In this document: positions 10,781 through 29,129 of the stretch, piece by piece | How positions within the stretch are numbered: the stretch's first letter is position 1 | How the letters are laid out: each line of letters starts with the position of its first letter | From: Trichodesmium erythraeum IMS101 | GTDB taxonomy: Bacteria > Cyanobacteriota > Cyanobacteriia > Cyanobacteriales > Microcoleaceae | DNA: 32,000 nt | Direction: 5' to 3' | Assembly (NCBI RefSeq): GCF_000014265.1 | Contig: NC_008312.1 | Location: forward strand, 450,001 to 482,000 | Program-made: the position numbers and the translations under genes | The notes under the pieces: generated by a model | What the model was told of the DNA's origin: nothing | Seen by the model: only the letters and a program-made list of their open reading frames with translations | The model's database searches: none

Positions 10781-11869
10781 TTTAAATCTACTCCATCTAT
10801 ATCTATAATTTTTGATGTAGATGGGGATTGTTTATAGAATTAGTTTGATGTCTATAGCATACAATTTTTGAATTTTAGGGAACAGAAAGCAGGAAAGAGA
10901 AAAAAATAGAATACTTTATTAATATGAGAAACTCTTTATAATTTAATTTTTTACAATTAATAAGGGCTGAGTTAAGTATTAGTTTTTAATGATTAGATAG
11001 CTATCAAATTAGATCTTTATTAAAGGAATAGATTGAAAGGATAGTATATTTTTCATAAATTCTAGATAATAAGGTGGTCATATTTTTTAAAACATTTAGT
11101 AATAAAAGTAGAGTTTTGATTTAAATGTCTATCTAAATATTTTACTGGGAGATGCTGGAGACGATCGACTTTATTTGAACTATTTTATTGTATTTACTCC
11201 CAGATAATACCTCAGACAAACAACGATTAAATAAGAAAATTGTTCTATATTTCTACTACAAATTACTAAATTAATATCAATATCTTAATCAGGTAAGGGG
11301 AGCTATTCAGCTAATTTTTGATAATAACCAAAGTTTTCATAATATATCATTACTGAGTAAAGAACAATTTCGATTAATAGGATATTCCATAGAATTAAAA
11401 ATGTATTTTTCTAAGTAATACTGCTCTTGATATTATCAGTAGGTGTAAGCATTCAGTTGTCAGCTATCAGCTAGAAGGAAAAATTAAAATCCTACAGGAA
11501 AAATATGATAAGCTTTACATAATTATTTGATTACTTTTATGTATCTTTTTCCGCAGCTAGACGGAGGAAAAACTCTGGAGCTGACTGCTAAGGTGCTGAA
11601 TTCTTGCTTTTTTTGACATCCTCCCCAAGCAAAAGGTATGGATATTTCTACTTAGCTAAAGCTCTTGGCTAGGGGTGAGCCCGAGAGATCCATATCTATT
11701 TTTTATCTCGGACTATCCCCCCAGGAATCATTAAGAAATTACTAAAATAGTATATAATATATAAAAAAAACTCAAAGGTCTCTACTTATGAGTGGGGCTT
11801 TAAACCAAGTTTTTAGGTCAAAATGTTAATAGAATAGAAATAACCATTTTTTTTAGAAAGAGGTCTCTG

Positions 11870-13597
11870 ATGGTAGCAATAACAGATCCAGTCAAAAATA
11901 GACTGACAATAGAGACAAATAAAATTGCCTCTGATACAATGGCCATTCGTTCTCTAGATTGGGACCGCGATCGCTTTGATATAGAATTTGGTCTACAGAA
12001 TGGTACCACATATAACTCCTTTATCATTCAAGGAGAAAAAACTGCTTTGGTGGATACATCCCATGGAAAGTTTCGCCAATTGTACCTAGATACTCTATTG
12101 GGTCTGATCAAACCTACCGAAATAGATTACTTAATTATTAGTCATACTGAACCCGATCATAGTGGTTTAGCTAAAGACATTATTGAACTAGCTCCACAAA
12201 TTACAGTAGTTGGGGCAAAAATAGCAATTCAATTTTTAGAAAATTTAACTCATATACCATTTAAAAAACAAATTGTCAAAAATGGAGATCAACTGGATTT
12301 AGGTAATGGTCACGTTTTAGAATTTGTTTCAGCTCCCAATTTACATTGGCCTGATACAATATTTAGCTATGATCGTAAAACCCAAACCCTATTTACCTGT
12401 GATGCTTTTGGGATGCACTATTGCTCAGACAAAACTTATGATGAAACTCTCAGTGATATAGAAGCAGATTATAAATTCTATTATGAATGTCTCATGGCCC
12501 CCAATGCTCGCTCAGTTTTAAATGCCATGAAACGCATGAAGGCACTGGGAGATATCAATACTATTGCGACAGGTCACGGTCCTCTCCTACGTCATAACTT
12601 AGTAGAACTAACAAACCGTTATCAGGAGTGGAGTCAAGCAAAAAGCAAAGCAGAAAAAACAGTAGCAGTATTCTACATTTCTGATTATGGTTATAGCGAT
12701 CGCCTCTCCCAAGCTATTGCCCATGGGATAATCAAAACAGGGGTAGCTGTAGAAATGATGGACTTAAAGTCTGCTGATCCCCAAGAGGTTAGAGAACTGG
12801 TAGAAATGGCCAAAGGAATTGTGATTGGAGCTCCTCCCAGTACAGGTCCTATCGCTACTACTGCGGAAATAGGCATCAGCACTATTTTAGCAGCAGCTAA
12901 TAAAAAACAAACATTTGGCTTATTTGAATCAGGTGGAGGGGATGACTTATCTATTTATCCTCTTGCTATCCAGTTTAAAGGACTAGGGCTCAAGCAAGCA
13001 TTTCCTAATATTACAATCAAAGAAACACCCTCAGAATTAACTTACAAGTTGTGTGAAGAAGCTGGAACAGATGCAGGACAACTTTTGAGTATCAAGGAAA
13101 ATATTAAGCAGATGAAATCCCTTGATAGTGGCCTGGATAAGGCTTTAGGTCGCCTGAGTGGAGGTTTGTATATTATTACTGCTAGTAAAGGTGAGGTTAG
13201 TAGTGCCATGTTAGCTTCTTGGGTAGTGCAAGCTAGTTTTAAACCATTGGGAGTTTCTATCGCAGTAGCAAAGGATCGAGCTATTGAGGCACTAATGCAA
13301 GTAGGCGATCGCTTTGTCTTAAATGTATTGCGAGAAGATAACTATCAATATTTGATGCGACATTTTTTGAAGCGCTTTAAACCTGGTGCAGACCGTTTTG
13401 CAGGGGTAAATACTCAAACTGCTAATAATGGTAGCCCCATTTTGAGTGATGCTCTAGCTTATTTAGAGTGTGAAGTGGCAACTCGGATGGAGGCAAGTGA
13501 CCATTGGATTATTTATGCGACTGTTGATAATGGGCGAGTTAGTGACTCAGATGTTTTGCCTGCAGTGCATCATAGAAAAGTAGGTAATCATTATTAA
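11870..13597 (+). CDS. Flavodiiron protein (cyanobacterial three-domain type: metallo-beta-lactamase-like, flavodoxin-like and flavin-reductase-like), Flv3/Flv4-like with canonical diiron ligands
   Basis: 575 aa. The canonical ligand motifs are present: SHTEPDHSG (H-x-E-x-D-H), NLHWPDT, TCDAFGMHY and TGHGP. The C-terminal flavin reductase-like extension (GLYIITASKG...VLNVL) is specific to cyanobacterial and plant Flv proteins. An aagagg SD lies upstream of the ATG. Confidence 0.9.
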   Translation: MVAITDPVKNRLTIETNKIASDTMAIRSLDWDRDRFDIEFGLQNGTTYNSFIIQGEKTALVDTSHGKFRQLYLDTLLGLIKPTEIDYLIISHTEPDHSGLAKDIIELAPQITVVGAKIAIQFLENLTHIPFKKQIVKNGDQLDLGNGHVLEFVSAPNLHWPDTIFSYDRKTQTLFTCDAFGMHYCSDKTYDETLSDIEADYKFYYECLMAPNARSVLNAMKRMKALGDINTIATGHGPLLRHNLVELTNRYQEWSQAKSKAEKTVAVFYISDYGYSDRLSQAIAHGIIKTGVAVEMMDLKSADPQEVRELVEMAKGIVIGAPPSTGPIATTAEIGISTILAAANKKQTFGLFESGGGDDLSIYPLAIQFKGLGLKQAFPNITIKETPSELTYKLCEEAGTDAGQLLSIKENIKQMKSLDSGLDKALGRLSGGLYIITASKGEVSSAMLASWVVQASFKPLGVSIAVAKDRAIEALMQVGDRFVLNVLREDNYQYLMRHFLKRFKPGADRFAGVNTQTANNGSPILSDALAYLECEVATRMEASDHWIIYATVDNGRVSDSDVLPAVHHRKVGNHY

Positions 13598-14020: not shown

Positions 14021-17000
14021 CTACTTCACAACCAACGTCGCCGTTGCCGATCGCCCAAATTCTTCGGGGGCATATTGTAACCGCGCTTCTGCTCCAGGCC
14101 ATATAAACGTTCCGGGAGTCACAGACCTAGCTAAATAGTGTAAGGTATATACCCCAGGCTTTAAACCCTCAGCGTAAGCTTCGATACGATCGCTATATAT
14201 CTGTTGATATTGTATTTGCCAACTATCAGCTTTTGCCTTCACAGCAGAAGTGGAAGTTTGAAAACTGGTATCAACTGCTTCTAAACCTGCTGGCAGTGGG
14301 TCCCTGATCACTACATGGTCTACAGGGTGGTCTACAATAATTTCGACTCCAATATCAAAGACTTGACCTGCAACAACATCTAATGTTGATGGAACCTCAG
14401 AGATATCCATCCGTTGCCATATTTCCTCTTCATTTGCCAGACTAATTTCACGTGCTACTCGCAGACCGTTATACTTTCCTGGCTGGTTTCCTGGGAGACG
14501 ATAACTATACTCAACTAAATAATGCAACTTCCCTTCCCCTGATTTTTCCAAGACTAGATCTGATTTACCTTTTGGCAACCCATCCATTGCCACATTCACA
14601 GATAGATTTTGATTTTCATAACCTTGAAAACGGGTAGTATCTAGCTGTTTACCAGATAAATTGGCGGTTGTGACAAAGTCTGGTGGGGTGGGTTGAGTAT
14701 TGCTATAAGTAACCAACGCCCTCAATGCTTCGGCATTATCATAAGTTGTACGCCAGGTGCCATCCCGCCGCAAGTTGAGCAAACTTTGTAATATTCGGTC
14801 TATTACTTCTGGTTTGGCGTCGCGGGTAATAAATAGTCGCAATGCTTGAGCTTGACTTGCGGTAGTTGAATTCATCCATCCCCAGGTAGGTGGTAAATTC
14901 AATGTGGCACTGCGCCCTGTTTCATAAACACTGTTCTGAATTTCCCTAAATATTTCTTCTGACTGCTGACGCCACTGGGGGAAACTAGATAAATAACGCC
15001 CTAGTCTAATTTGGTTGACTAGTGACAATTTTTCCCGTTGTTGATAAATATCTGACAGGAAATTCTTGCGGGTATAACCTAATTCTGACAATGCTATTAA
15101 GACATTTAACCGCACCTGATTTTTACAGGGTTGTTCGGTACAATAATCATATTTACCTGGGTTTGCTAATAGGTTGTTTAAGTAATTCCGTAGACCATTT
15201 AACATTGAGTCATTCACTAAATTTGGAAATGCTTTTTGGGCTTGAGCGATCGCCTCCCCGGCATAAGCAGTCAAATAAGGGTTAGAAATTTCCTGCCCTG
15301 GATAATAACCAAAACCGCCATCTGGCAGTTGTAACTTTTCTAATTTTTCTAATGTTATTTTTGCCTGTTCCTCTGGGTTAAAGTCTACAAATGCTTGCTC
15401 ATATTTTTTACCTAAAATTTGTAAATTAGAAGCGATCGCTAACTGACTAGCCACAGGTTCAAGAAATGGTAACTGGTCTTTTTTCAACACTGCTTTTGCC
15501 GGAGCAGTAATTTCTGGTATCAAGGTACTTGCCATAAATATTTCCAGACCTCCCACATCTGGCATCACATTCTCAGTAATATTCAGAGGAATTTGCACTT
15601 GAGACTCAGTTATACCAGACTCCACCACAGTTTCACTTGCTGCCAAAGACCGAACGGGTAAAGCAACTTCAAACCCATCAGTGTCAAGGTCATTCAAGCC
15701 AGTCCTAAACTGCACTTTTGCCTCGCCAGGTTGTTTTGCCTCCATGGGAAAGCGGTAAGCATTCGTGCCTGGGTCTGCTTTTATTTTTAGAGTTTCTGTA
15801 GTTTGGGAATTTTTAGTAAACAAAATATTCTGACTAACTTCCCCATTTATTTTTAGACTTCCTTTTTTGCCAGTATTATTCGTAACGGCTACACCACCCT
15901 CAAACTTGTCACCAATACGAGCAAACTGAGGCAACATAGCATTTGACATTAAAGGTTGAGTCGTAATAAAAGTCGCCTCTCCATTGCCAAAATGTAAATT
16001 CCCATCTGTGGCAACAGCCATTATACGCCAGGTTGTTAAATCATCTGGTATATTAAAACTTACCGTTGCTTTACCTTGATCATCCGTAAGAACAGACCCA
16101 TTATAATAAGCTAAAGACTGAAAATATTTCCGAATGCGAGTACTAACACCGCCAGATGATATCCCATCTCTAATATTCTCATTTGAACTTGATATGTAAC
16201 CTGTACTATTCGATCTTGCCATTGTCATTTTTCTTGCTTTGCAGTTATCATTGAAACGAGTAGATATTGCTTGCTGCGAGTAGCGGGTAGATATTGGTTG
16301 CTGCGCGTAGACAGTCTCAACCAAATTTGGTGGTCGATAACCACTCAGTTGTAACACCGCTTCATTCACTACCATCACTGTCAACTGACCTTTTATCGGT
16401 TGCCCTTGATTATTTTTCAGTGCCAACTCCACATTTTCCATTGCCCCTGGTTGTAACTCCAGACTTTGGGGTGTCACTTCCACCTTTAAGTATTTGTCCG
16501 TCAAATCAATTTTCAATGGAGTAAAACCAACTTTCATCAAATTTTCCACACACCCAGGTTCCACATCTGGCAGTGGTTGACCTTGCGGGACTAACACTGC
16601 CTCCACTGCAGCATTAGGTAACATATTTTCTGTAACTTGAAATTGAATTTCCGGTGCGCCACTTTTAACTTTGACAATTTTTTCATATAGAGGTTTATCA
16701 CGCACGACAGCAAAATATAATTCCCCTTCTGGATAGGGCGACTGAATTAAAGCAGTTGCAGTTTCCCCTACTTGGTAGGTGTCTTTATCGAATTTTATTT
16801 TTAGACGTTCTTCCTTCTGGCTTCCCCAATAAACTCGCCCTGCTCCCGTTGCCCAAACCTGAATATCAGTAGCAGTAATGTCATCCTCAGCATTGGCAAA
16901 GTTGGCACGAATGCGATAACTGCCTGGTTCTGGGGGTGTAAGGTTGACGGTCTTGGGTTTGTTGTTGCTTATAACTTTTTCGGTAGCAACAGTTTTGTAT

Positions 17001-19735
17001 TCTACTTGGGCGACAGCACTCTGGGTGACTGCACTGTATTCCATTTTTTGTAATTCCAGTAGAATATTTTCCCCAGAAAGTGCTTTTCCTTGAGAGTTAG
17101 TCACAATAATTTCTACTGGAAATTTTTTATTCGCATCAGCAACAAATTTACTTTTTAAACCTATTAACTTCTGACTTGTTAGAGCAGTAAATGTTTGAGT
17201 ATCTGCTACAGAAAGATTGGATATATCTGTTACTTCCAGATCTACTTGATAATTCATTGGATAAGGTAAATCTTTCCCAACTGTAAATATTTGATTATCG
17301 CCACCATTATTATCTAGTATTACATTTTTTGTCAGCACATTATTAGGAACATTTGGTATTTTTTCCGGCCAAAACCATTGACGACCAAAAGAAAATTCTT
17401 GCCAATTTTTTGGAGAAAATTCTGTTTTTGTACGAGTCAGATAATATTTAGCTTTTCCCCCTTGCAACGGGGAACCAAACAAATAATTACTTTCAGCTTT
17501 TACCCCAATTTTTTCACCAAGTAAAACAATTTGTTTATCAAGTTTCAAGTCAACTTGAAAATTAGGTGGTTGAAATTCAGCGACACGAAATAGTCCGTAA
17601 ATTTCTACACCATTTTCTCCTTTTGCTTTTACGGTGTAATAACCGAATAGCTGATTACTATCCAGAGGAATTTCGAGAGAAAAAGTACCAAATTTATTAG
17701 TTGTCTGAGTGCCTAAGTTTTTATTATTACCATCTGGATTTATCAGAGTAATTTGATAATCTGTATTTTTGGCTTGTTTCAAGTTGCCATTTTCCAAATA
17801 ATAAGCAGCTCCAGTCAACCAAACTTTTTCTCCTGGTTGATAAATTTTTCTATCTGAAAAAATAGTACCCCGCGATTTAGGTTTTCCACTATCCCAACCA
17901 TAATTAATGTCATAATCATAGTTTATACTATATTCTTTAGTTATAGTAAATGCCCAATCTTGATTTTCTTTAGCAATTACTAATAGTTCTGGTGGTTGAG
18001 AAAAAAGCTGACCGTTCATACATTTTTTTAAGTCTGTTTTAGTTAAATTTACCAGACCATTTTTATCAGTTTTTCCAGTAGCACAAGGAGTCGTTTGAGA
18101 TTGAGATTTAGAATTTAATTGCAATTGATAAATCTCCACATTTGCCACAACTGGAGAACCATCATCTAGATGATTTACTCTAATAATTCCCGACTCTGGA
18201 AACCACTGAGCAAATACTCTTAAATTTGTTAATTGTATTAATCCATAAAATTCTGGTTCTTGCCATTTTTCCTGACCGTTTTGTTCAGAAAAACTCGTCC
18301 GAGCTTGTACTCCATAAGCTAACATTCCGGTCTGACCACCCAATTTTTCTTGAAGGGGAATTGCTACTTCTGTTATTTTATTTTTTTCTCCAGAAACAGG
18401 ATATTTTTGCCACTTTTTATTTATCGGTAATAAGTTCTTCCGATTATTTATAGGATAGGCTGACTCTGTGTAAACTAAATCTGTTGGTTGTACAACTTTA
18501 TAGGTTGCTTTATATTCTGATTCTGGCAGATTTACTGTAGAAATTTTTAGTTGTAAATCTTGACTAGACGCGAAAATTTTTAACCCTGAAGGAACAGAAA
18601 TATCTCCTAATAAATCTCCTGTTTGATAATCTAAGACAACGGGCTTTCCTAGTATTTGCCCAAATTTATCTTTGGTATTAGAACCAATAGTAATTTTATA
18701 ATTTGTATCGGGTTCTAACAGCAAAGGATTAAGACGAACAATGTTATAGTTATTGTTAGCTTGAATCAGATTTTTAGTTTCTTTTGGTGCGGGCTCAATT
18801 GTAATATTTTTAACCGCTGAATCTTCTACAATTCCATGATTAAATTCTAATATAGGATTACCTTTAACAAATATACTCCTTCTCTCGGAAAATTTGAGTT
18901 GAGAAAATTCAAAATTAGAGTAGGTTTCTACTTCACTAATGAAAGGTGTTTGACTAGGTAAATTACCTTTCAATGTTTGAATACCTGAGTCAAATTCTAG
19001 CCGATATTTAGTACCTTTTTCTAGAGTTACTTGGGGAGTAATTAAATAATTCCATTGATGCCAAGAAGGGTCAAATTTTTCTCTGGGAGATTGTTCTTTT
19101 TCAGAATTTTCTAATTTTTCTAAACTAACTACAAAGGGTAAGCTTTCTGTCTTACCATCTGGCAAAAATTTTAATTTTTTTGTAATTGAATCTAAATCCA
19201 ATTCCACATTTGAGGTGAATTTTAAAGTTGGATTTATATTAATTGGTTCTTTTCTGCTACTCCTTGGTAAATTTGTTAGTTTGACTGGTTCAGTATTAAA
19301 AGTCCAGACTAAATCTTGATCTAATTGATGATTTTTTAAGTCAGATAAACCAGATTTTAGAGTAACTTTAAATCTGGTGGATTTTGGCAAGGCTTCTTCT
19401 GATTGAAAACCTACCATTTTCGGAGTCAAAAATCGGAATTGACCAGGTAATTCCGGGAAAATTTCAAACTGCTTTAATTTTTCCTGTTGTTCTAGAGAAC
19501 CTACAGTTTCCAAAGGAATTAAAGGTTCTTTAAACCGAATCAGAATTTGACTTAAAGATTTTGCTTCTCCCGTGGGAGTAATTTGTTCTATCCACTCGGG
19601 TAGTGGAGCAGTAATTATTAAGTCTACCATTGGTGATTTTTCCTGTTTTGAACTTAAGCTAAAGCTACTAAATATTCCTATGGTCAATACTAAGCATAAT
19701 CCTATGAGAAAATATTTCCAATATTTAAGAACCAT
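14021..19735 (-). CDS. Bacterial alpha-2-macroglobulin family protein, apparently thioester-less, with an N-terminal signal-anchor
   Basis: 1904-aa ORF with repeated Ig-like macroglobulin-domain character. It has the IPDDLTTWRIMAVA motif and an alpha/alpha-toroid TED-like region (LPDGGFGYYPG, RRDGTWRTTYDNAEALRAL). The N-terminus MVLKYWKYFLIGLCLVLTIGIFSSF is hydrophobic. The ORFs at 14452, 15022, 16294 and 18226 (+) are antisense noise. Confidence 0.9.
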   Translation of the reverse strand: MVLKYWKYFLIGLCLVLTIGIFSSFSLSSKQEKSPMVDLIITAPLPEWIEQITPTGEAKSLSQILIRFKEPLIPLETVGSLEQQEKLKQFEIFPELPGQFRFLTPKMVGFQSEEALPKSTRFKVTLKSGLSDLKNHQLDQDLVWTFNTEPVKLTNLPRSSRKEPININPTLKFTSNVELDLDSITKKLKFLPDGKTESLPFVVSLEKLENSEKEQSPREKFDPSWHQWNYLITPQVTLEKGTKYRLEFDSGIQTLKGNLPSQTPFISEVETYSNFEFSQLKFSERRSIFVKGNPILEFNHGIVEDSAVKNITIEPAPKETKNLIQANNNYNIVRLNPLLLEPDTNYKITIGSNTKDKFGQILGKPVVLDYQTGDLLGDISVPSGLKIFASSQDLQLKISTVNLPESEYKATYKVVQPTDLVYTESAYPINNRKNLLPINKKWQKYPVSGEKNKITEVAIPLQEKLGGQTGMLAYGVQARTSFSEQNGQEKWQEPEFYGLIQLTNLRVFAQWFPESGIIRVNHLDDGSPVVANVEIYQLQLNSKSQSQTTPCATGKTDKNGLVNLTKTDLKKCMNGQLFSQPPELLVIAKENQDWAFTITKEYSINYDYDINYGWDSGKPKSRGTIFSDRKIYQPGEKVWLTGAAYYLENGNLKQAKNTDYQITLINPDGNNKNLGTQTTNKFGTFSLEIPLDSNQLFGYYTVKAKGENGVEIYGLFRVAEFQPPNFQVDLKLDKQIVLLGEKIGVKAESNYLFGSPLQGGKAKYYLTRTKTEFSPKNWQEFSFGRQWFWPEKIPNVPNNVLTKNVILDNNGGDNQIFTVGKDLPYPMNYQVDLEVTDISNLSVADTQTFTALTSQKLIGLKSKFVADANKKFPVEIIVTNSQGKALSGENILLELQKMEYSAVTQSAVAQVEYKTVATEKVISNNKPKTVNLTPPEPGSYRIRANFANAEDDITATDIQVWATGAGRVYWGSQKEERLKIKFDKDTYQVGETATALIQSPYPEGELYFAVVRDKPLYEKIVKVKSGAPEIQFQVTENMLPNAAVEAVLVPQGQPLPDVEPGCVENLMKVGFTPLKIDLTDKYLKVEVTPQSLELQPGAMENVELALKNNQGQPIKGQLTVMVVNEAVLQLSGYRPPNLVETVYAQQPISTRYSQQAISTRFNDNCKARKMTMARSNSTGYISSSNENIRDGISSGGVSTRIRKYFQSLAYYNGSVLTDDQGKATVSFNIPDDLTTWRIMAVATDGNLHFGNGEATFITTQPLMSNAMLPQFARIGDKFEGGVAVTNNTGKKGSLKINGEVSQNILFTKNSQTTETLKIKADPGTNAYRFPMEAKQPGEAKVQFRTGLNDLDTDGFEVALPVRSLAASETVVESGITESQVQIPLNITENVMPDVGGLEIFMASTLIPEITAPAKAVLKKDQLPFLEPVASQLAIASNLQILGKKYEQAFVDFNPEEQAKITLEKLEKLQLPDGGFGYYPGQEISNPYLTAYAGEAIAQAQKAFPNLVNDSMLNGLRNYLNNLLANPGKYDYCTEQPCKNQVRLNVLIALSELGYTRKNFLSDIYQQREKLSLVNQIRLGRYLSSFPQWRQQSEEIFREIQNSVYETGRSATLNLPPTWGWMNSTTASQAQALRLFITRDAKPEVIDRILQSLLNLRRDGTWRTTYDNAEALRALVTYSNTQPTPPDFVTTANLSGKQLDTTRFQGYENQNLSVNVAMDGLPKGKSDLVLEKSGEGKLHYLVEYSYRLPGNQPGKYNGLRVAREISLANEEEIWQRMDISEVPSTLDVVAGQVFDIGVEIIVDHPVDHVVIRDPLPAGLEAVDTSFQTSTSAVKAKADSWQIQYQQIYSDRIEAYAEGLKPGVYTLHYLARSVTPGTFIWPGAEARLQYAPEEFGRSATATLVVK
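16257..16310. repeat. 27-bp (9-codon) tandem duplication inside the A2M gene
   Basis: cgagtagatattgcttgctgcgagtag (16257-16283) is followed by cgggtagatattggttgctgcgcgtag (16284-16310), with 24 of 27 positions identical. This encodes YAQQPISTR / YSQQAISTR on the - strand. Confidence 0.85.
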
Positions 19736-20524
19736 ATTTTTATGATTTAAGGATAATTTTTACTGACAATTATTAAAGGTCTAATGACTGAAAAGAATAG
19801 GCTATTTAATTTATTAATCTTAAACCATTATATCTCTAAGAGTTAAATACTCAAATAGTTGAATAGTTATTAAATCGTCAAGTCTAAACTATATAAATTT
19901 TAGCAGAAATAGCACAGATACTTTTTCGGAAATAGTCAGTCATTTTTTTTACTCCAGAACATAAGAGCGATCGCTTAATTGAATCATAACTGGAATTAAT
20001 TTTTTAGTCATAGGACATTAAATAAATTCCAGATTGTGGAAAATTTATAAAAAGTAAAACTCTAAACAAAAAAAACTAATAATTATGAAATATATAACAA
20101 TCATATTTTTATTTTTTCCAAAATTTTACCGCTTTTGGCGACAAGAACTTGGGTGTAATAGCTAAGAGCTTCAGAACAAATTACTTTAATTATTAAAGAA
20201 TAGCTTTTTCTCCGGTTATTTCTGTTTTTTGCCCTCTACTTCCTTCCTAACAGTCGCCAATTTTTTCACTTTTTAGATAGCATGACTATATTTAATAAAT
20301 TGATAAAAAATAAAAATTTATGGTTTAAATATCAAATGGTAAATAACTAGTTAATTTTTGTAGAGTAATAATTTATGATAATACCTAAAGCAAAATTTAA
20401 TATACTTTGCTCAAAAATGTTGATGTTAGAAAAGCGGCTCAGGATTTGAGCAACTTCTTTTGAGATATCTATTAATTTATATTTCTCATGAATGGAATAG
20501 TATCACTATTAAATAGTTTTAATT

Positions 20525-20850
20525 ATGGGTAAAGAGGCTGTAGTTTTTGGAATTAATTGTTATCCATTTTTGAAAAAATAAAAGTTAGGAGATTTTGATT
20601 TTAAAGCTCCTGTTAAAGATGCCGAAGGTATTACTAATATCTTGGAAAAATATGGTAAGTTTCGATTTCAACACTGGCCAAAGAAGGATGATGAGGAAGG
20701 TAAAAAAATATTTGGTTCTAAGGGCAAGGTTATAATTAATGACCTCTAATATTAGTAACTTCTTTGGAAAAAGATGAGATAGAGGAAGCAATTAAGAACC
20801 CAGCGGAATTAGTGGGAATGGCAGTAGAAGCTAAGTTAGTTACTCAAAAA
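20525..20850 (+). pseudogene. Relic of the 5' part of a caspase-like (peptidase C14-type) multidomain gene
   Basis: One frame reads MGKEAVVFGINCYPFLKK*KLGDFDFKAPVKDAEGITNILEKYGKFRFQHWPKKDDEEGKKIFGSKGKVIINDL*. The (A)VV(F)GIN.Y...L.aP..DAE.i...LekyG.F pattern matches, from memory, the N-termini of cyanobacterial caspase-domain proteins. There is an in-frame TAA and then a frameshift (..SNISNFFGK in another frame). The catalytic His/Cys part is absent. Confidence 0.5.
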
Positions 20851-21815
20851 ATTGACCTTGATACTAATACAAAAACCAGAGAAACAGACCCCCAACTTGT
20901 AGCCAACAAATTTGCTGCTCCTGCCAAAGTAAAAGAAGGTAAAAAATTAGCAAAATAGGGAAAAATAAAACAGACAATTTCTATCTTCAAAAAATCTCTA
21001 GAACTGGAACCAGAAATTGACCTTGATACTAATACAAAAACCAGAGAAACAGACCCCCAACTTGTAGCCAACAAATTTGCTGCTCCTGCCAAAGTAAAAG
21101 AAGGTAAAAAATTAGCAAAATAGGGAAAAATAAAACAGACAATTTCTATCTTCAAAAAATCTCTAGAACTGGAACCAGAAATTGACCTTGATACTAATAC
21201 AAAAACCAGAGAAACAGACCCCCAACTTGTAGCCAACAAATTTGCTGCTCCTGCCAAAGTAAAAGAAGGTAAAAAATTAGCAAAATAGGGAAAAATGGAA
21301 CCAGCAATTTCTATCTTCAAAAAATCTCTAGAACTAGAACCAGAAATTGACCTTGATACTAATACAAAAACCAGAGAAACAGACCCCCAACTTGTAGCCA
21401 AAAAATTTGCTGCTCCTGCCAAAGTAAAAGAAGGTAAAAAATTAGCAAAATAGGGAAAAATGGAACCAGCAATTTCTATCTTCAAAAAATCTCTAGAACT
21501 GGAACCAGAAATTGACCTTGATACTAATACAAAAACCAGAGAAACAGACCCCCAACTTGTAGCCAACAAATTTGCTGCTCCTGCCAAAGTAAAAGAAGGT
21601 AAAAAATTAGCAAAATAGGGAAAAATGGAACCAGCAATTTCTATCTTCAAAAAACCTCTAGAACTGGAACCAGAAATTGACCTTGATACTAATACAAAAA
21701 CCAGAGAAACAGACCCCCAACTTGTAGCCAAAAAATTTGCTGCTCCTGCCAAAGTAAAAGAAGGTAAAAAATTAGCAAAATAGGGAAAAATGGAACCAGC
21801 AATTTCTATCTTCAA
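20844..21815 (-). CDS. Repeat-encoded antisense ORF (hypothetical, probably not a real gene)
   Basis: 323-codon open frame made only of the 55-aa unit FLKIEIAGSIFPYFANFLPSFTLAGAANLLATSWGSVSLVFVLVSRSISGSSSRG. It has no ATG in frame (the ORF track start is TTG) and no upstream leader or SD. The composition mirrors the K/E-rich sense strand. Confidence 0.2.
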   Translation of the reverse strand: MKIEIAGSIFPYFANFLPSFTLAGAANFLATSWGSVSLVFVLVSRSISGSSSRGFLKIEIAGSIFPYFANFLPSFTLAGAANLLATSWGSVSLVFVLVSRSISGSSSRDFLKIEIAGSIFPYFANFLPSFTLAGAANFLATSWGSVSLVFVLVSRSISGSSSRDFLKIEIAGSIFPYFANFLPSFTLAGAANLLATSWGSVSLVFVLVSRSISGSSSRDFLKIEIVCFIFPYFANFLPSFTLAGAANLLATSWGSVSLVFVLVSRSISGSSSRDFLKIEIVCFIFPYFANFLPSFTLAGAANLLATSWGSVSLVFVLVSRSIF

Positions 21816-21881
21816 AAAAGCTCTAGAACTGGAACCAGAAATTGACCTCGTTCCTAATACAAAAACCAGAGAAACAGACCC

Positions 21882-24209
21882 TCAACTTGTAGCCAACAAA
21901 TTTGCTGCTCCTGCCAAAGTAAAAGAAGGTAAAAAATTAGCAAAATAGGGAAAAATGGAACCAGCAATTTCTATCTTCAAAAAACCTCTAGAACTGGAAC
22001 CAGAAATTGACCTTGATACTAATACAAAAACCAGAGAAACAGACCCCCAACTTGTAGCCAACAAATTTGCTGCTCCTGCCAAAGTAAAAGAAGGTAAAAA
22101 ATTAGCAAAATAGGGAAAAATGGAACCAGCAATTTCTATCTTCAAAAAATCTCTAGAACTGGAACCAGAAATTGACCTTGATACTAATACAAAAACCAGA
22201 GAAACAGACCCCCAACTTGTAGCCAACAAATTTGCTGCTCCTGCCAAAGTAAAAGAAGGTAAAAAATTAGCAAAATAGGGAAAAATGGAACCAGCAATTT
22301 CTATCTTCAAAAAACCTCTAGAACTGGAACCAGAAATTGACCTTGATACTAATACAAAAACCAGAGAAACAGACCCCCAACTTGTAGCCAACAAATTTGC
22401 TGCTCCTGCCAAAGTAAAAGAAGGTAAAAAATTAGCAAAATAGGGAAAAATGGAACCAGCAATTTCTATCTTCAAAAAATCTCTAGAACTGGAACCAGAA
22501 ATTGACCTTGATACTAATACAAAAACCAGAGAAACAGACCCCCAACTTGTAGCCAACAAATTTGCTGCTCCTGCCAAAGTAAAAGAAGGTAAAAAATTAG
22601 CAAAATAGGGAAAAATAAAACAGACAATTTCTATCTTCAAAAAATCTCTAGAACTGGAACCAGAAATTGACCTTGATACTAATACAAAAACCAGAGAAAC
22701 AGACCCCCAACTTGTAGCCAACAAATTTTCTGCTCCTGCCAAAGTAAAAGAAGGTAAAAAATTAGCAAAATAGGGAAAAATGGAACCAGCAATTTCTATC
22801 TTCAAAAAACCTCTAGAACTGGAACCAGAAATTGACCTCAATACTAATACAAAAACCAGAGAAATAGACCCCCAACTTGTAGCCAACAAATTTGCTGCTC
22901 CTGCCAAAGTAAAAGAAGGTAAAAAATTAGCAAAATAGGGAAAAATAAAACAGACAATTTCTATCTTCAAAAAATCTCTAGAACTGGAACCAGAAATTGA
23001 CCTTGATACTAATACAAAAACCAGAGAAACAGACCCCCAACTTGTAGCCAACAAATTTGCTGCTCCTGCCAAAGTAAAAGAAGGTAAAAAATTAGCAAAA
23101 TAGGGAAAAATGGAACAGACAATTTCTATCTTCAAAAAATCTCTAGAACTGGAACCAGAAATTGACCTTGATACTAATACAAAAACCAGAGAAACAGACC
23201 CCCAACTTGTAGCCAACAAATTTGCTGCTCCTGCCAAAGTAAAAGAAGGTAAAAAATTAGCAAAATAGGGAAAAATGGAACCAGCAATTTCTATCTTCAA
23301 AAAACCTCTAGAACTAGAACCAGAAATTGACCTCGATCCTAATACAAAAACCAGAGAAACAGACCCCCAACTTGTAGCCAACAAATTTGCTGCTCCTGCC
23401 AAAGTAAAAGAAGGTAAAAAATTAGCAAAATAGGGAAAAATGGAACAGACAATTTCTATCTTCAAAAAATCTCTAGAACTGGAACCAGAAATTGACCTTG
23501 ATACTAATACAAAAACCAGAGAAACAGACCCCCAACTTGTAGCCAACAAATTTGCTGCTCCTGCCAAAGTAAAAGAAGGTAAAAAATTAGCAAAATAGGG
23601 AAAAATGGAACCAGCAATTTCTATCTTCAAAAAAGCTCTAGAACTAGAACCAGAAATTGACCTTGATACTAATACAAAAACCAGAGAAACAGACCCCCAA
23701 CTTGTAGCCAACAAATTTGCTGCTCCTGCCAAAGTAAAAGAAGGTAAAAAATTAGCAAAATAGGGAAAAATGGAATCAGCAATTTCTATCTTCAAAAAAG
23801 CTCTATAACTAGAACCAGAAATTGACCTTGATACTAATACAAAAACCAGAGAAACAGACCCCCAACTTGTAGCCAACAAATTTGCTGCTCCTGCCAAAGT
23901 AAAAGAAGGTAAAAAATTAGCAAAATAGGGAAAAATGGAACCAGCAATTTCTATCTTCAAAAAAGCTCTATAACTGGAACCAGAAATTGACCTTGATACT
24001 AATACAAAAACCAGAGAAACAGACCCCCAACTTGTAGCCAACAAATTTGCTGCTCCTGCCAAAGTAAAAGAAGGTAAAAAATTAGCAAAATAGGGAAAAA
24101 TGGAACCAGCAATTTCTATCTTCAAAAAACCTCTAGAACTAGAACCAGAAATTGACCTTGATACTAATACAAAAACCAGAGAAACAGACCCCCAACTTGT
24201 AGCCAACAA
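21882..24209 (-). CDS. Repeat-encoded antisense ORF (hypothetical, probably not a real gene)
   Basis: 775-codon open frame across about 14 units with the same 55-aa unit as above. It contains no internal Met. It is bounded by stops created by single-unit substitutions (TGA at 21882-21884, TAA near 24210-24218). Confidence 0.2.
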   Translation of the reverse strand: MLATSWGSVSLVFVLVSRSISGSSSRGFLKIEIAGSIFPYFANFLPSFTLAGAANLLATSWGSVSLVFVLVSRSISGSSYRAFLKIEIAGSIFPYFANFLPSFTLAGAANLLATSWGSVSLVFVLVSRSISGSSYRAFLKIEIADSIFPYFANFLPSFTLAGAANLLATSWGSVSLVFVLVSRSISGSSSRAFLKIEIAGSIFPYFANFLPSFTLAGAANLLATSWGSVSLVFVLVSRSISGSSSRDFLKIEIVCSIFPYFANFLPSFTLAGAANLLATSWGSVSLVFVLGSRSISGSSSRGFLKIEIAGSIFPYFANFLPSFTLAGAANLLATSWGSVSLVFVLVSRSISGSSSRDFLKIEIVCSIFPYFANFLPSFTLAGAANLLATSWGSVSLVFVLVSRSISGSSSRDFLKIEIVCFIFPYFANFLPSFTLAGAANLLATSWGSISLVFVLVLRSISGSSSRGFLKIEIAGSIFPYFANFLPSFTLAGAENLLATSWGSVSLVFVLVSRSISGSSSRDFLKIEIVCFIFPYFANFLPSFTLAGAANLLATSWGSVSLVFVLVSRSISGSSSRDFLKIEIAGSIFPYFANFLPSFTLAGAANLLATSWGSVSLVFVLVSRSISGSSSRGFLKIEIAGSIFPYFANFLPSFTLAGAANLLATSWGSVSLVFVLVSRSISGSSSRDFLKIEIAGSIFPYFANFLPSFTLAGAANLLATSWGSVSLVFVLVSRSISGSSSRGFLKIEIAGSIFPYFANFLPSFTLAGAANLLATS

Positions 24210-24218
24210 ATTTGCTGC

Positions 24219-24785
24219 TTATGCCAAAGTAGAAGAAGGTAAAAAACTAGCAAAATAGGGAAAAATAAAACAGACAATTTCTATCTTCAAAAAATCTCTA
24301 GAACTAGAACCAGAAATTGGCCTCAATACTAATACAAAAACCAGAGAAACAGACCCCCAACTTGTAGCCAACAAATTTGCTGCTCCTGCCAAAATAAAAG
24401 AAGGTAAAAAATTAGCAAAATAGGGAAAAATAAAACAGACAATTTCTATCTTCAAAAAATCTCTAGAACTGGAACCAGAAATTGACCTTGATACTAATAC
24501 AAAAACCAGAGAAACAGACCCCCAACTTGTAGCCAACAAATTTGCTGCTCCTGCCAAAGTAAAAGAAGGTAAAAAATTAGCAAAATAGGGAAAAATGGAA
24601 CCAGCAATTTCTATCTTCAAAAAACCTCTAGAACTAGAACCAGAAATTGACCTCGTTCCTAATACAAAAACCAGAGAAACAGACCCCCAACTTGTAGCCA
24701 ACAAATTTGCTGCTCCTGCCAAAGTAAAAGAAGGTAAAAAATTAGCAAAATAGGGAAAAATGGAACCAGCAATTTCTATCTTCAA
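24219..24785 (-). CDS. Repeat-encoded antisense ORF (hypothetical, probably not a real gene)
   Basis: 188-codon open frame with the same unit, a TTG start only, and the same caveats. Confidence 0.15.
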   Translation of the reverse strand: MKIEIAGSIFPYFANFLPSFTLAGAANLLATSWGSVSLVFVLGTRSISGSSSRGFLKIEIAGSIFPYFANFLPSFTLAGAANLLATSWGSVSLVFVLVSRSISGSSSRDFLKIEIVCFIFPYFANFLPSFILAGAANLLATSWGSVSLVFVLVLRPISGSSSRDFLKIEIVCFIFPYFASFLPSSTLA

Positions 24786-24924
24786 AAAATCTCTAGAACT
24801 AGAACCAGAAATTGACCTTGATACTAATACAAAAACCAGAGAAACAGACCCTCAACTTGTAGCCAACAAATTTGCTGCTCCTGCCAAGGTAAAAGAAGGT
24901 AAAAAATTAGCAAAATAGGGAAAA

Positions 24925-25165
24925 ATGGAACCAGCAATGAATCTTTATAATCAAGCACAAAAATTAGATTCAGATGTCGAAATAGATACGAGTAATTTAG
25001 GATACTTATATTTTTTTTGCAGCTTAAATAATCAGGCTCAAGATATAATTTTTGCCTGTGAAAAAGCCGTTAAACTGGAGCCTAATAATAAAAAAAACTC
25101 AGTTTTATTGAGGTTTAGCAAGAGCATTAACAGGAGATTATTCGGGAGAAATTGAGGGTTTTTAA
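24925..25165 (+). pseudogene. Relic of the 3' part of the same gene (TPR-like C-terminal module), frameshifted and truncated
   Basis: The last array unit runs into MEPAMNLYNQAQKLDSDVEIDTSNLGYLYFFCSLNNQAQDIIFACEKAVKLEPNN. After an A8 run (about 25090-25097) the recognisable sequence continues in another frame as ARALTGDYSGEIEGF* (25118-25165). The pattern ...ACEKAV.LEP...RGLARALTGD..GAIEDF is, from memory, a recurrent C-terminal module of cyanobacterial caspase/TPR multidomain proteins. Confidence 0.5.
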
Positions 25166-25369
25166 GTATTAATATATTCTCTCAAATATTAGGTTTAAAA
25201 ATCCAGATTTTAGGTTAGGATATAAACTTTTACAAAAGGAGAAAAATCATTTAATTATGAGGTATTGAAGGAGTGGAAAAAAGAGGTAAATATACTAATA
25301 AATAGAAAGTCTTGAAAAGTCATATTAGGGAATCCCGTGCTGCCTCATAGGAGCAGCCTCGGGAGGATA

Positions 25370-26356: not shown

Positions 26357-26658
26357 GTTAAAAATATTCTGTTAATATAATTTTAATTGTACTTTACCTG
26401 CTAGATATTTGCTAGTTATAGCCACTTTTTTGAAACTTTAATTTATCTCAATATTACTAATTTTAGAAAAAATATTCATAAAAGTATTGCTAATAGAGAA
26501 AGGTGTCAGTCTAGAAAGTCTAAAAAATAGACAATTGCATTACTTTTTTGGACATAATATGAAGTATATTCTCAACAAAAATAGATATAAAATTACAAAT
26601 AAAATAACAAATAAATGATATAATAGTAATTTTAAATAAACTTCACATACGTCCAATA

Positions 26659-27140
26659 GTGAGAGGAAAAACTAAAAAAAACACAGAATTTGGAGCAAAA
26701 CCTTGTGCAAGTTGTATAGAGCAATATGTATTTTTACATCGAATAAGTTGGGATAACTATAAAAAATCAGGAGATTTAAAAGTAACTGCAAAACGACACA
26801 GGCCGTCACCCAGAGTCGGCTGGTGCAGAGCAAGTTTACAGATCAGCAAGAAAATCTAAAATTCTGTCAAAAGAAAAGTATTTTATAGGAGCATTATTTC
26901 CCTGTGTTGACCACCCAAAAATATTGATCAAATAGAAATATTCTAGGTCAGGAGCGATCAAAAATTGCCTAACTATATTGAGGGTAAATTTTGGCCACTA
27001 CAAAAGAAGATTTAATCTAGGACAAGTGATGGCCAAACTTTCTGAAACTTCCACAACTTGGATAGAATAACCTTTAGCAGCGCGATCGCAATTACTTTTT
27101 TTAGTAATAACCTTTCTACCCTCTTAAAAGCAGCTTTTTC
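26659..27140 (+). pseudogene. C-terminal fragment of an IS4/IS5-superfamily DDE transposase, with frameshifts and stops
   Basis: Frame-hopping translation gives RGKTKKNTEFGAK...FLHRISWDNYKKSGDL, then ...PPKNIDQIEI...RSDQK..NYIEGKFWPLQKKI*S..., then ..GQVMAKLSETS...AITFFSNNLSTLLKAA. This matches the usual ...RGK..vEFGAK...lsWd.ynEs.dL...GRPPK...RN.IEGkFGq.KRrf.L.rvmAKL.eTS...I.i.flvmNL... C-terminal pattern. The N-terminal two thirds are missing and no inverted repeats were identified. Confidence 0.65.
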
Positions 27141-28265
27141 TCTTTTTTTGTACTTTTTTTTTTCAGTCTGTTTAACTATTTTTCCTTATAACTAAATGAA
27201 TATATAATAATAAAAAATTATCACTCTCTTTGAATAAGAAATCAACGATTTTCAGATTTATTCAGTCATCATAAATTAAGTCCATAATTTTTGTGAAAGA
27301 ACTCAAATGATATAGAGCTTAGGTAATTTTTTTTGTGTAGATCATCAAATTATCGTTCCTTTACTTGGGTTAGGTTGACCCCTCCAAATACTCTTCTCGT
27401 CCTTTCTGGGTGTCCCAGTTGCCCTTCTGTTTTTCCATAGCTGTAGTCCAGTTCCTTCTTAAGTGGGGCTTTTTCTCAGGGCTGGCCCAGGCCACTAGAG
27501 GTTAGCAATAATGAGATTTGAGGATTTTTATTCAGTTTTTCTATTACTTGTTACTATTGTCCAACGAGTTCAACTAGAGCATTCACCGACAGTAATTCTT
27601 AGTCTTTTCTCTCTTTTGGAATATCTGGTGGAATTCATTTCTCTACAATACTCAAGAGCTTTCCCTTTTTATTAGCTCCCTACCCTTCAATGCTTACCCC
27701 CTGGAGTATCTAAAAAATTCTTTGCCTTCCTATGATTAGCCAACTTTAAACCTAATTTTTTCTGTAATCAAGATTTACTAAAGTATGCCCCATATTTTTC
27801 TAATAGTAAACTCAGAAATTTAGCCGACTGGTTACCGACAAACCACTACAAAAAATAGAATAGTAGCTAGCCTAATTTGGGATTAATAATTGACAAAAAA
27901 TTAATCAAAATATATTAATATAATAAAAATTGTAAAGAAAATTCAAAAAAAGCAATGATCAAAACACATTAGTTGTTCATATAGCCTATCCCTGTCCAGG
28001 GATGAATTTGTCTAAAGCTTCCCAACTATTTGGGAGAGAACTAACAAAACCTGGCTAGCTAGATAGCTAAGTTGATCATAAAAAAAAGATAATATATATT
28101 ACGATATTTTAAGAGGTACCAGGATTTGAATACCAAATTAAAAGTATTAGTTTCTCAAAATACAGTTTTAATATCCATTGCACTCTTAGTCTGGAGTACA
28201 TAATCTTACTAGGAGCAACAGAAGCATTTTCCTATTTACTAAATAATTGGGAAATAGCCTTAACA

Positions 28266-29129
28266 ATGGTCTTTGGGTCAGCTATAGCTGGGGGTACAAG
28301 CTTGGGAGGAGGAGCTGTGGCATTTCCAGTTTTTACCAAAATTCTACACATTCCACCTTCTGATGCTAAAATATTCTCCCTTGCCATTCAAAGTGTAGGT
28401 ATGACTGCTGCTGCCACTACCATTCTTTTAACTGGAATTAAAGTAGAACTACGAGTAATTTTGTGGGGAAGTCTGGGTGGCTTTTTAGGAGTATTTGTAG
28501 GTTCAGCCTTTTTAGCGCCTTTTGTCCCCCCTGATGTGATTAAAATGTCTTTTACTGTTATGCTGACCAGCTTTGCTATTACCTTATTAAAATTAAACCA
28601 AAAGCCAAGAGAATTGTATCAAGTCATGCCAGTTTGGAGAGTGAAAGAGCAGAGAATTTGGTTAATAGTTGGTTTTCTCGGAGGAGTTATGAGTGGTTTA
28701 GTTGGTAGTGGAATTGATGTATTTACGTTTTCTGTAATGGTAGTTTTGTTTGGCCTTTGCGAAAAGGTTGCTACCCCCACTTCTGTCATTCTCATGGCAG
28801 TTAATGCTATAGCTGGATTTATTTTACAGGTCTTTGTCTTTCAGGATTTTATCGACCCAGTGCGTAGTTATTGGTTTGCAGCTATTCCAGTGGTTGTTGT
28901 TGGGGCACCTCTGGGGGCAATATGTTGTAACCTGTTACCTAGAGAAACCATTGCCAATATCCTGATAGGTTTAATTTGTATAGAAGTTATTTCCTCTTTA
29001 CTTGTGATTAACTTAACATTTATAGTTATCTACTCTAGCTTGATAGCTTTAGTGGTATTCTCTTGTTTGAATTACTGGATGTACCGCACAAAAATCTTTG
29101 CTCAAAATCAAAAAGAATATTATGGTTAA
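28266..29129 (+). CDS. TauE/SafE (TSUP, DUF81) family anion permease; the start codon is uncertain
   Basis: 287-aa polytopic membrane ORF. Gly-rich helices are typical of the family (AGGTSLGGGAVAFPVF, then LVGSGIDVFTF in the second half). The frame is open upstream to 28113 without any ATG, GTG or TTG. Confidence 0.65.
   Translation: MVFGSAIAGGTSLGGGAVAFPVFTKILHIPPSDAKIFSLAIQSVGMTAAATTILLTGIKVELRVILWGSLGGFLGVFVGSAFLAPFVPPDVIKMSFTVMLTSFAITLLKLNQKPRELYQVMPVWRVKEQRIWLIVGFLGGVMSGLVGSGIDVFTFSVMVVLFGLCEKVATPTSVILMAVNAIAGFILQVFVFQDFIDPVRSYWFAAIPVVVVGAPLGAICCNLLPRETIANILIGLICIEVISSLLVINLTFIVIYSSLIALVVFSCLNYWMYRTKIFAQNQKEYYG

Follow-up and report, generated by a model that had tools for sequence, protein, structure and literature searches.

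The stretch of DNA analyzed here (the window, 32,000 nucleotides) covers positions 450,001 to 482,000 of contig NC_008312.1 and belongs to the finished chromosome (7,750,108 bp) of Trichodesmium erythraeum IMS101; an initial annotation, made from the letters alone, had wrongly assigned the host to the Nostocales. All coordinates below are those of the window. Between a gene of the alpha-2-macroglobulin family and moaA, both of them ordinary chromosomal genes, lies a single tandem array of a 165-bp unit (20849..24938, sense strand +), in which Tandem Repeats Finder counts 24.8 copies with 97% matches and 0% indels. The anchor sequence TAGGGAAAAAT is found 25 times, at 20956+165k, compared with a mean of 0.14 and a maximum of 2 occurrences in dinucleotide-preserving shuffles of the window, which places the array far above chance. 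The copy number, unit length, absence of indels, and anchor count given in the initial annotation are thus all recovered. Its estimate of about a dozen variable sites was too low, as the actual number is roughly twice that.

The 24 full units differ at 23 sites with 24 distinct substitutions, and they form 18 distinct haplotypes with a mean pairwise identity of 96.8%. Variants are distributed as a mosaic. Units 0, 1, 10, 12, 20, and 21 share a block of changes, AA.AGA, and units 6 and 23 have the C.TC variant in common; four sets of units are identical in sequence (0/1/10, 4/8, 7/9, and 14/19/22). The most divergent units, 20 and 21, lie near the 3' end and carry 10 and 9 differences from the consensus, respectively. 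No lag structure or higher-order periodicity was detected among the units, and the similarity of any two units is independent of the distance between them. The substitutions are of mixed type (G>A, C>T, T>C, C>A, G>T, A>G, and others) and are not confined to adenine positions, which rules out the target of a diversity-generating retroelement. The units are contiguous, so the short repeats and unique spacers of a clustered regularly interspaced short palindromic repeat (CRISPR) array are absent, as had been stated before, and the earlier exclusion of an insertion sequence (IS) or a miniature inverted-repeat transposable element also stands, the array being protein-derived instead.

Read on the + strand, the unit specifies a hydrophilic sequence of 55 residues, GK(M/I)(E/K)(P/Q)(A/T)ISIFKKxLELEPEIDLDTNTKTRETDPQLVANKFAAPAKVKEGKKLAK followed by a stop; if translated, it would give peptides such as FAAPAK and the tryptic SLELEPEIDLDTNTK and ETDPQLVANK. 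The stop is a TAG formed by the first three bases of the anchor, and it recurs in frame once per unit (n = 25, 20956..24918 at 20956+165k, + strand). The expectation that reading frames are preserved through the whole array is correct with respect to register, but neither strand offers a clean open reading frame (ORF), as the + frame meets TAG in every unit and the - frame is interrupted by three stops. A conceptual translation of three units with TAG read as Glu matches the Pfam families TPR_8 at 35.7 bits (cut-off 25.7) and TPR_1 at 33.4 bits (cut-off 27.8). The best-matching stretches, residues 51-74 and 53-74 of this query, open just before the stop and cross the unit junction, and each unit is predicted to comprise one TPR hairpin plus a linker.

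Every homolog of the unit forms the tail of a WD40 protein, the source genera being Trichodesmium, Okeania, Hydrocoleum, Dapis, and Hormoscilla. A two-unit query gave best local alignments of 53-94% identity to proteins P0001-P0012, and the unit together with the sequence 3' of the array aligned to the same proteins at 51-81%. Full-length relatives, such as a 2081-residue protein of Hormoscilla (L024), consist of an N-terminal domain, an nSTAND1 nucleoside triphosphatase (NTPase) domain (PF20703), many WD40 repeats, and a TPR-like tail; in another relative, the ORF on contig L022, Pfam detects nSTAND1 at E = 3.5e-83 in addition to WD40. The nSTAND1-WD40 tails of Trichodesmium, Okeania, and Hormoscilla (P0061, P0062, P0068, P0179, L024) carry the same module, AISIFKxAxELxPEIDLDPxTExxETDPQLVANK....EGKxLAxxGxI, and the same downstream tail, NLYNxAQKLDSDVEID...SLNNQAQD..FACEKAV. 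When the 55-residue module was counted in relatives from Trichodesmium and Okeania, a check that the initial annotation had proposed, it was found in frame once (P0179, P0066), twice (P0061, P0102), three times (P0062), or at least five times (P0068), whereas the IMS101 array has 24.8 copies with a stop in each. The unit is therefore an expansion-prone protein repeat rather than a sequence of unknown origin. This bears out the suggestion that the array is protein-derived, while the finding that the unit is already tandemly repeated in intact relatives lowers its novelty relative to the earlier description. Repetition is also seen elsewhere in this gene family. The WD40 region of a paralog from Trichodesmium MAG_R03 (L023 1-1040) matches one WD40 segment of contig L012 in steps of ~123 bp at 87-91% identity; this is a second region of the gene family with internal repeats, and assemblies are likely to break there too.

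Homology to the nSTAND1-WD40-TPR tail proteins extends from the unit to both flanks of the array. On the left, 20752..20848 (+) encodes a 33-residue remnant of an nSTAND1 NTPase (LILVTSLEKDEIEEAIKNPAELVGMAVEAKLVTQ) fused straight to unit 1, which BLASTP aligns over its 33 residues with positions 141-173 of the L022 ORF (76% identity, E = 7e-14). The locus contains this fragment and no complete PF20703 domain, and no WD40-coding sequence is present between 20525 and 25285, the NTPase fragment abutting the first unit; deletion has removed the remainder of the NTPase and every WD40 repeat. Frame translation of 20525..20746 (+) shows a frameshifted 5' remnant (MGKEAVVFGINCYPFLKK / KLGDFDFKAPVKDAEGITNILEKYGKF...GKVIINDL) that has no match in Pfam, PDB, or the homolog search. 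A caspase-like identity for this remnant is left unsupported by these searches. On the right, three-frame translation of 24939..25285 (+) reveals a decayed TPR-like tail (MNLYNQAQKLDSDVEIDTSNLGYLYFFCSLNNQAQDIIFACEKAVKLEPNNKK, then GLARALTGDYSGEIEGF...FTKGEKSFNYEVLKEWKKE) that aligns to the intact tails of P0004, P0006, P0010, and P0012, with a frameshift near 25095 and several stops.

An uninterrupted frame through the tail is thus absent. In addition to the 25 TAG codons and the lesions after 25095, there are two TAA stops, at 23806-23808 and 23971-23973 (+), produced by G>T at unit index 150 in units 17 and 18. At the codon homologous to TAG, L012 and L034 have GAA (Glu) and L033 has TAT (Tyr), and homologous proteins read LAKEGK at this place. 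Rescue of the frame by recoding or read-through of TAG is ruled out by the TAA codons in two units and the frameshifted flanks. As judged from these sequence features, the locus represents a decayed, sensor-type nSTAND1-WD40-TPR gene whose parent, by homology, was a STAND-type protein of the class with an nSTAND1 NTPase, WD40 repeats, and a TPR-like tail. Compared with the nSTAND1-WD40 proteins themselves, in which NTPase and WD40 domains are present and the tail is in frame, it is a remnant, not a working member, and the host gene is dead. The earlier statement that no intact gene explains the array is thus supported, and extends to the whole locus.

The pattern of substitution among the units gives no sign of constraint. 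The variants are 5 synonymous to 19 non-synonymous in the + frame, where random mutation of the consensus predicts 109:386 (22% synonymous), and 4 to 20 in the antisense frame, where the expectation is 123:372 (25% synonymous). Nonsense variants arise in both reading frames. The unit variants fit the neutral expectation in both frames, and nothing in the sequence indicates selection. We regard the array as probably a neutral, satellite-like, non-functional expansion of a TPR-linker module within a decayed nSTAND1-WD40-TPR gene.

Several points weigh against this interpretation. The figure of 24.8 copies in IMS101 comes from one Sanger-era assembly. The sole contig with a single in-frame unit at this position, L012, is a paralog recombinant or a chimera and so provides no clean ancestor, and the order of the stop codon, duplication, and deletion is one that we infer. 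Transcription or translation of the array may still occur. An ATG lies 6 nt past each TAG, except that ATA takes its place in the 6 of 24 full units with the AA.AGA block, and in the other 18 full units, as well as in the terminal partial unit, the resulting TAG-GGAAAA-ATG arrangement places purine-rich GGGAAAA ahead of the ATG. The variant that creates this ATG is derived and has become the majority form, and the NCBI Prokaryotic Genome Annotation Pipeline (PGAP) calls a 52-residue ORF on the + strand (WP_155994221) there, as do the annotations of several metagenome-assembled genomes (MAGs).

These features would be expected if the array were a polycistronic battery of ~19 near-identical 52-codon ORFs (MEPAISIFKK...KKLAK), each re-initiated 6 nt past a TAG, that supplies a TPR-hairpin micropeptide at high dosage. 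We consider this improbable, as besides the units that lack the ATG two others have a premature TAA, the 5:19 ratio of synonymous to non-synonymous changes is that of neutral sequence, and the 52-residue peptide occurs in natural populations as at least 11 amino-acid variants. The peptide would also be a domain fragment, consisting of half a TPR, a linker, and half a TPR, and no promoter-like site precedes it within the array. The start codon itself looks like the product of templated copying rather than of selection. The majority junction variant, MEPA (ATGGAACCAGCAATT; ATGGAACCAGCA), differs from IKQT (ATAAAACAGACA) at 5 bases within 8 (window 20965-20976 and equivalents). It resembles CTGGAACCAGAAATT and matches the TGGAACCAG..AATT segment located 39 nt downstream in the same unit (unit index 115-123 vs 154-162), which suggests a templated, template-switch type of multi-base mutation. 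An intermediate form, MEQT (ATGGAACAGACA), is found in units 13 and 15, and MEPA is derived with respect to the paralog forms IKQA, IKEA, and IEQT.

A related proposal sees in the array a source of non-coding RNA (ncRNA), or a regulatory or structural DNA element. The model for this lies at 103-110 kb of the same genome, where 7 repeats of ~970 bp form an array that gives rise to the most abundant ncRNA of IMS101 (Pfreundt et al. 2014, PMC4143802). Much of the non-coding DNA of IMS101 is transcribed (PMC4143802), and a remnant promoter of the dead gene could drive read-through; a weak promoter-like site is present at 20263-20292 (+). Within the array itself the search found nothing of this kind: none of the 13 promoter-like and 2 terminator-like sites between 19700 and 25400 falls inside it, and no unit contains a sigma-70-like site. 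No Rfam family matches the window, and the RNA of two units folds no more stably than shuffled sequence on either strand (z = +1.7 and +0.5). None of the top 20 primary transcripts of IMS101 maps near the locus (PMC4143802), and the unit is unrelated to the published repeat, as judged from the statement of that paper, and not from a sequence comparison, that its array has no similarity elsewhere in T. erythraeum apart from the duplicated part of Tery_0080 (PMC4143802). A role as an RNA source or DNA element is accordingly rated as poorly as the micropeptide battery. The broader idea, that the array is transcribed from a relic promoter and either translated by stop-restart into 52-residue TPR-derived peptides or processed to unit-length RNAs, seems unlikely, if slightly less so. 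Were it true, the repeat of a pseudogene would have been put to use to amplify gene dosage, in a genome where abundant transcripts derived from repeats are already known.

Current annotations place proteins on the opposite strand of the array. GenBank lists two hypothetical proteins, Tery_0305 (323 aa, 20844-21815, -) and Tery_0306 (775 aa, 21882-24209, -), and RefSeq lists WP_155994220 (188 aa, 24219-24785, -). If real, these would be Ser/Leu/Phe-rich proteins with a 55-residue repeat and peptides such as DFLKIEIAGSIFPYFANFLPSFTLAGAANLLATSWGSVSLVFVLVSR, and their listing in GenBank, UniProt, and RefSeq together with the long open frame would speak for them. This possibility is effectively refuted. 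The antisense ORFs have only TTG starts and no ATG, stops created by unit variants interrupt the frame at three places, and its substitutions are 4 synonymous to 20 non-synonymous. No homologs were found beyond the array itself, and the Pfam matches of these ORFs are compositional, without any match at the level of a domain. Among codon-shuffled units, 42% have a stop-free antisense frame, and as one open unit opens the whole array, long antisense ORFs are expected by-products; the + frame, by comparison, shows clear homology to real proteins across the unit as well as on either flank. GenBank and RefSeq therefore annotate the array as hypothetical proteins on the wrong strand. The antisense ORFs Tery_0305, Tery_0306, WP_155994219, and WP_155994220 are, almost certainly, spurious; the 52-residue ORFs are pseudogene fragments. 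A literature search on Tery_0305 and Tery_0306 found no paper, and a mention of a "tandem repeat" in PMC5776111 concerns unrelated calcium-binding proteins.

Other assemblies of the T. erythraeum type have flanks 99-100% identical to the window, and the array is resolved in none of them. The GBRTRLIN201 and ALOHA_ZT_67 scaffolds (L011, L025) have N gaps inside it, and at least 12 contigs from different samples stop 100-300 nt into the array from either side. Four short-read contigs span the locus with only 1-2 units (L001-L004), as would be seen if the true locus held 1-3 units and the IMS101 array were an assembly artifact. These spanning contigs are discordant, however, in that the same first unit is followed by four different second units and one contig runs on into a unit of a third type. 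Populations contain at least 11 unit variants, and the one seen in window unit 20, AAYAKVEEGKK, recurs in other MAGs. The gaps, contig ends, discordant second units, and common variants together indicate that a multi-copy array with shared variant units exists in nature. Moreover, collapse or expansion during assembly would not yield 18 haplotypes in non-periodic order, and we give an artifactual origin very little credence. The earlier warning that assemblies fail in such a region was well founded, as every other assembly has an N gap, an end within the array, or an inconsistent collapse to 1-2 units. Scans of metagenome DNA gave no relevant match.

In two of the spanning contigs the similarity to the window changes across the array: L003 4100-8117 and L004 4039-5782 are 99% identical to the window to its left and 95-96% to its right, where L003 falls to 85% and lacks the TauE gene. 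Either the strains themselves are mosaic or recombinant, or the contigs are inter-species chimeras, with the join at the array.

One contig was considered as a possible unamplified ancestor. L012 (ERZ27252522 k141_553588; 11202-12233, - strand of the locus) has an open WD40-TPR frame adjoining moaA; the frame carries one unit, in which GAA stands where the array has TAG. Its identity to the window breaks at 24953: there are 0 mismatches over the 2,049 nt downstream of this point and ~83% identity upstream. The L012 unit is ~97% like that of a paralog in the ThiC neighborhood (L034) and ~83% like the array units. The identity break and the paralog-like unit rule out L012 as a simple unamplified ancestor and point to an ectopic recombinant between paralogous loci or to a chimeric assembly; it shows what a single-unit state looks like, not the history of the array locus.

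A route to the array is suggested by the relatives with a single unit, whose tails contain two similar helical motifs exactly 55 codons apart. The first is ...IKQAISIFKKALELEPE... (GEKxxIKQAISIFKKALELEPE) and the second ...LAKEGKIEQTINLYNQAQKLDSD... / GKI(K/E)(E/Q)(A/T)INLYN.AQKLDSD. Unequal exchange or replication slippage between the two motifs may have produced the first duplication. In the older junction variant of the array, GKIKQT|ISIFKK, the start of motif 2 is joined to the rest of motif 1, the hybrid that an unequal exchange between them would yield. Unequal sister or inter-copy exchange of the RecA type, together with gene conversion, could then have raised the number to ~25 units, kept these ~97% alike, and shuffled variants among them. 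Mosaic variants common to distant units and to different strains argue against one burst of duplication and for unequal exchange and gene conversion that occurred repeatedly. In this respect the proposal of amplification with continuing homogenization made in the initial annotation is upheld, as variant blocks recur in non-adjacent units without distance structure and are present in other strains as well.

As TAG is common to all 25 units, the stop most likely arose before the expansion, the other possibility being that conversion spread it through the array. If the stop came first, selection on the protein would not have driven the expansion, which would have begun in a gene that was already decaying. 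A large internal deletion joined the NTPase fragment directly to the first unit. Trichodesmium is polyploid. The persistence of the array is probably due to weak selection against extra DNA in IMS101, a genome of which, as reported, only ~60% is coding (PMC4143802).

The array can be compared with several known kinds of tandem repeat. Surface proteins such as alpha C and Rib of group B streptococci, and SasG and Aap, contain near-identical long tandem repeats within their genes; these repeats are a multiple of three in length and in register, and their number is maintained and varied by recA-type unequal recombination. The IMS101 array shares the long, near-identical, in-register units and the length divisible by three. 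Unlike the surface-protein arrays, which are intact, expressed ORFs under selection for copy number, it has a stop per unit and evolves as neutral sequence. It also resembles the ~970-bp ncRNA array in being tandem, in the same genome, and partly derived from a duplicated gene fragment. The two are not identical, given the size, number, and position of the repeats in that array, whose units measure 736-973 bp compared with 165 bp here; each of its repeats has a transcription start site and very high expression, in contrast to the absence of promoter-like signal and of a top-20 transcript at the present locus (PMC4143802). The existence of the ncRNA array does indicate that this genome tolerates tandem arrays on the kilobase scale. 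Finally, the head-to-tail, non-coding, homogenized units with mosaic variants are reminiscent of eukaryotic satellites or macrosatellites, as is the location of the most divergent units (20 and 21) among the last four, near the array 3' end. Unlike those, the array is a single locus on a bacterial chromosome, is derived from a pseudogene, and yielded no evidence of a structural role.

The array is thus unusual for bacteria generally, yet in keeping with the IMS101 genome, where it is curious but ordinary. It would offer a clean, datable case of non-coding growth in which an expansion-prone protein repeat kept expanding after the death of its gene, to 4 kb, a direction opposite to the usual bacterial deletion bias. 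Runaway of intragenic repeats in pseudogenes may accordingly be a further mechanism, beside IS elements, introns, and ncRNAs, contributing to the unusually large share of non-coding DNA in Trichodesmium. In practical terms, short-read assemblies and MAGs of Trichodesmium systematically break at the locus, which could serve as a strain marker.

The left neighbor of the locus is the alpha-2-macroglobulin family gene (14021..19735, -), for which we find 1904 aa here and in several MAGs compared with 1869 aa in the GenBank (ABG49782) and RefSeq records of IMS101, the starts being 35 codons apart. On the right lies moaA, encoding GTP 3',8-cyclase (ABG49785; 25370..26356, -). The 1.9 kb from moaA to the TauE-family gene (26357-28265) lack long ORFs, and one frame there (...RGKTKKNTEFGAKP...ISWDNYKKSGDL...) may represent a decayed IS-type transposase fragment. 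The TauE/SafE gene (window 28122-29129; L001 6019-7026) encodes 287 aa in the window, L013, L014, and L016 and 335 aa in L001, L002, L011, L012, and L025, so that the N-terminal 48 codons vary between strains; the difference is one of start site or of N-terminal replacement. Two small tandem repeats elsewhere in the window, at 1061-1123 (29-31 bp x 2.1) and 26587-26615 (12 bp x 2.4), are unremarkable.

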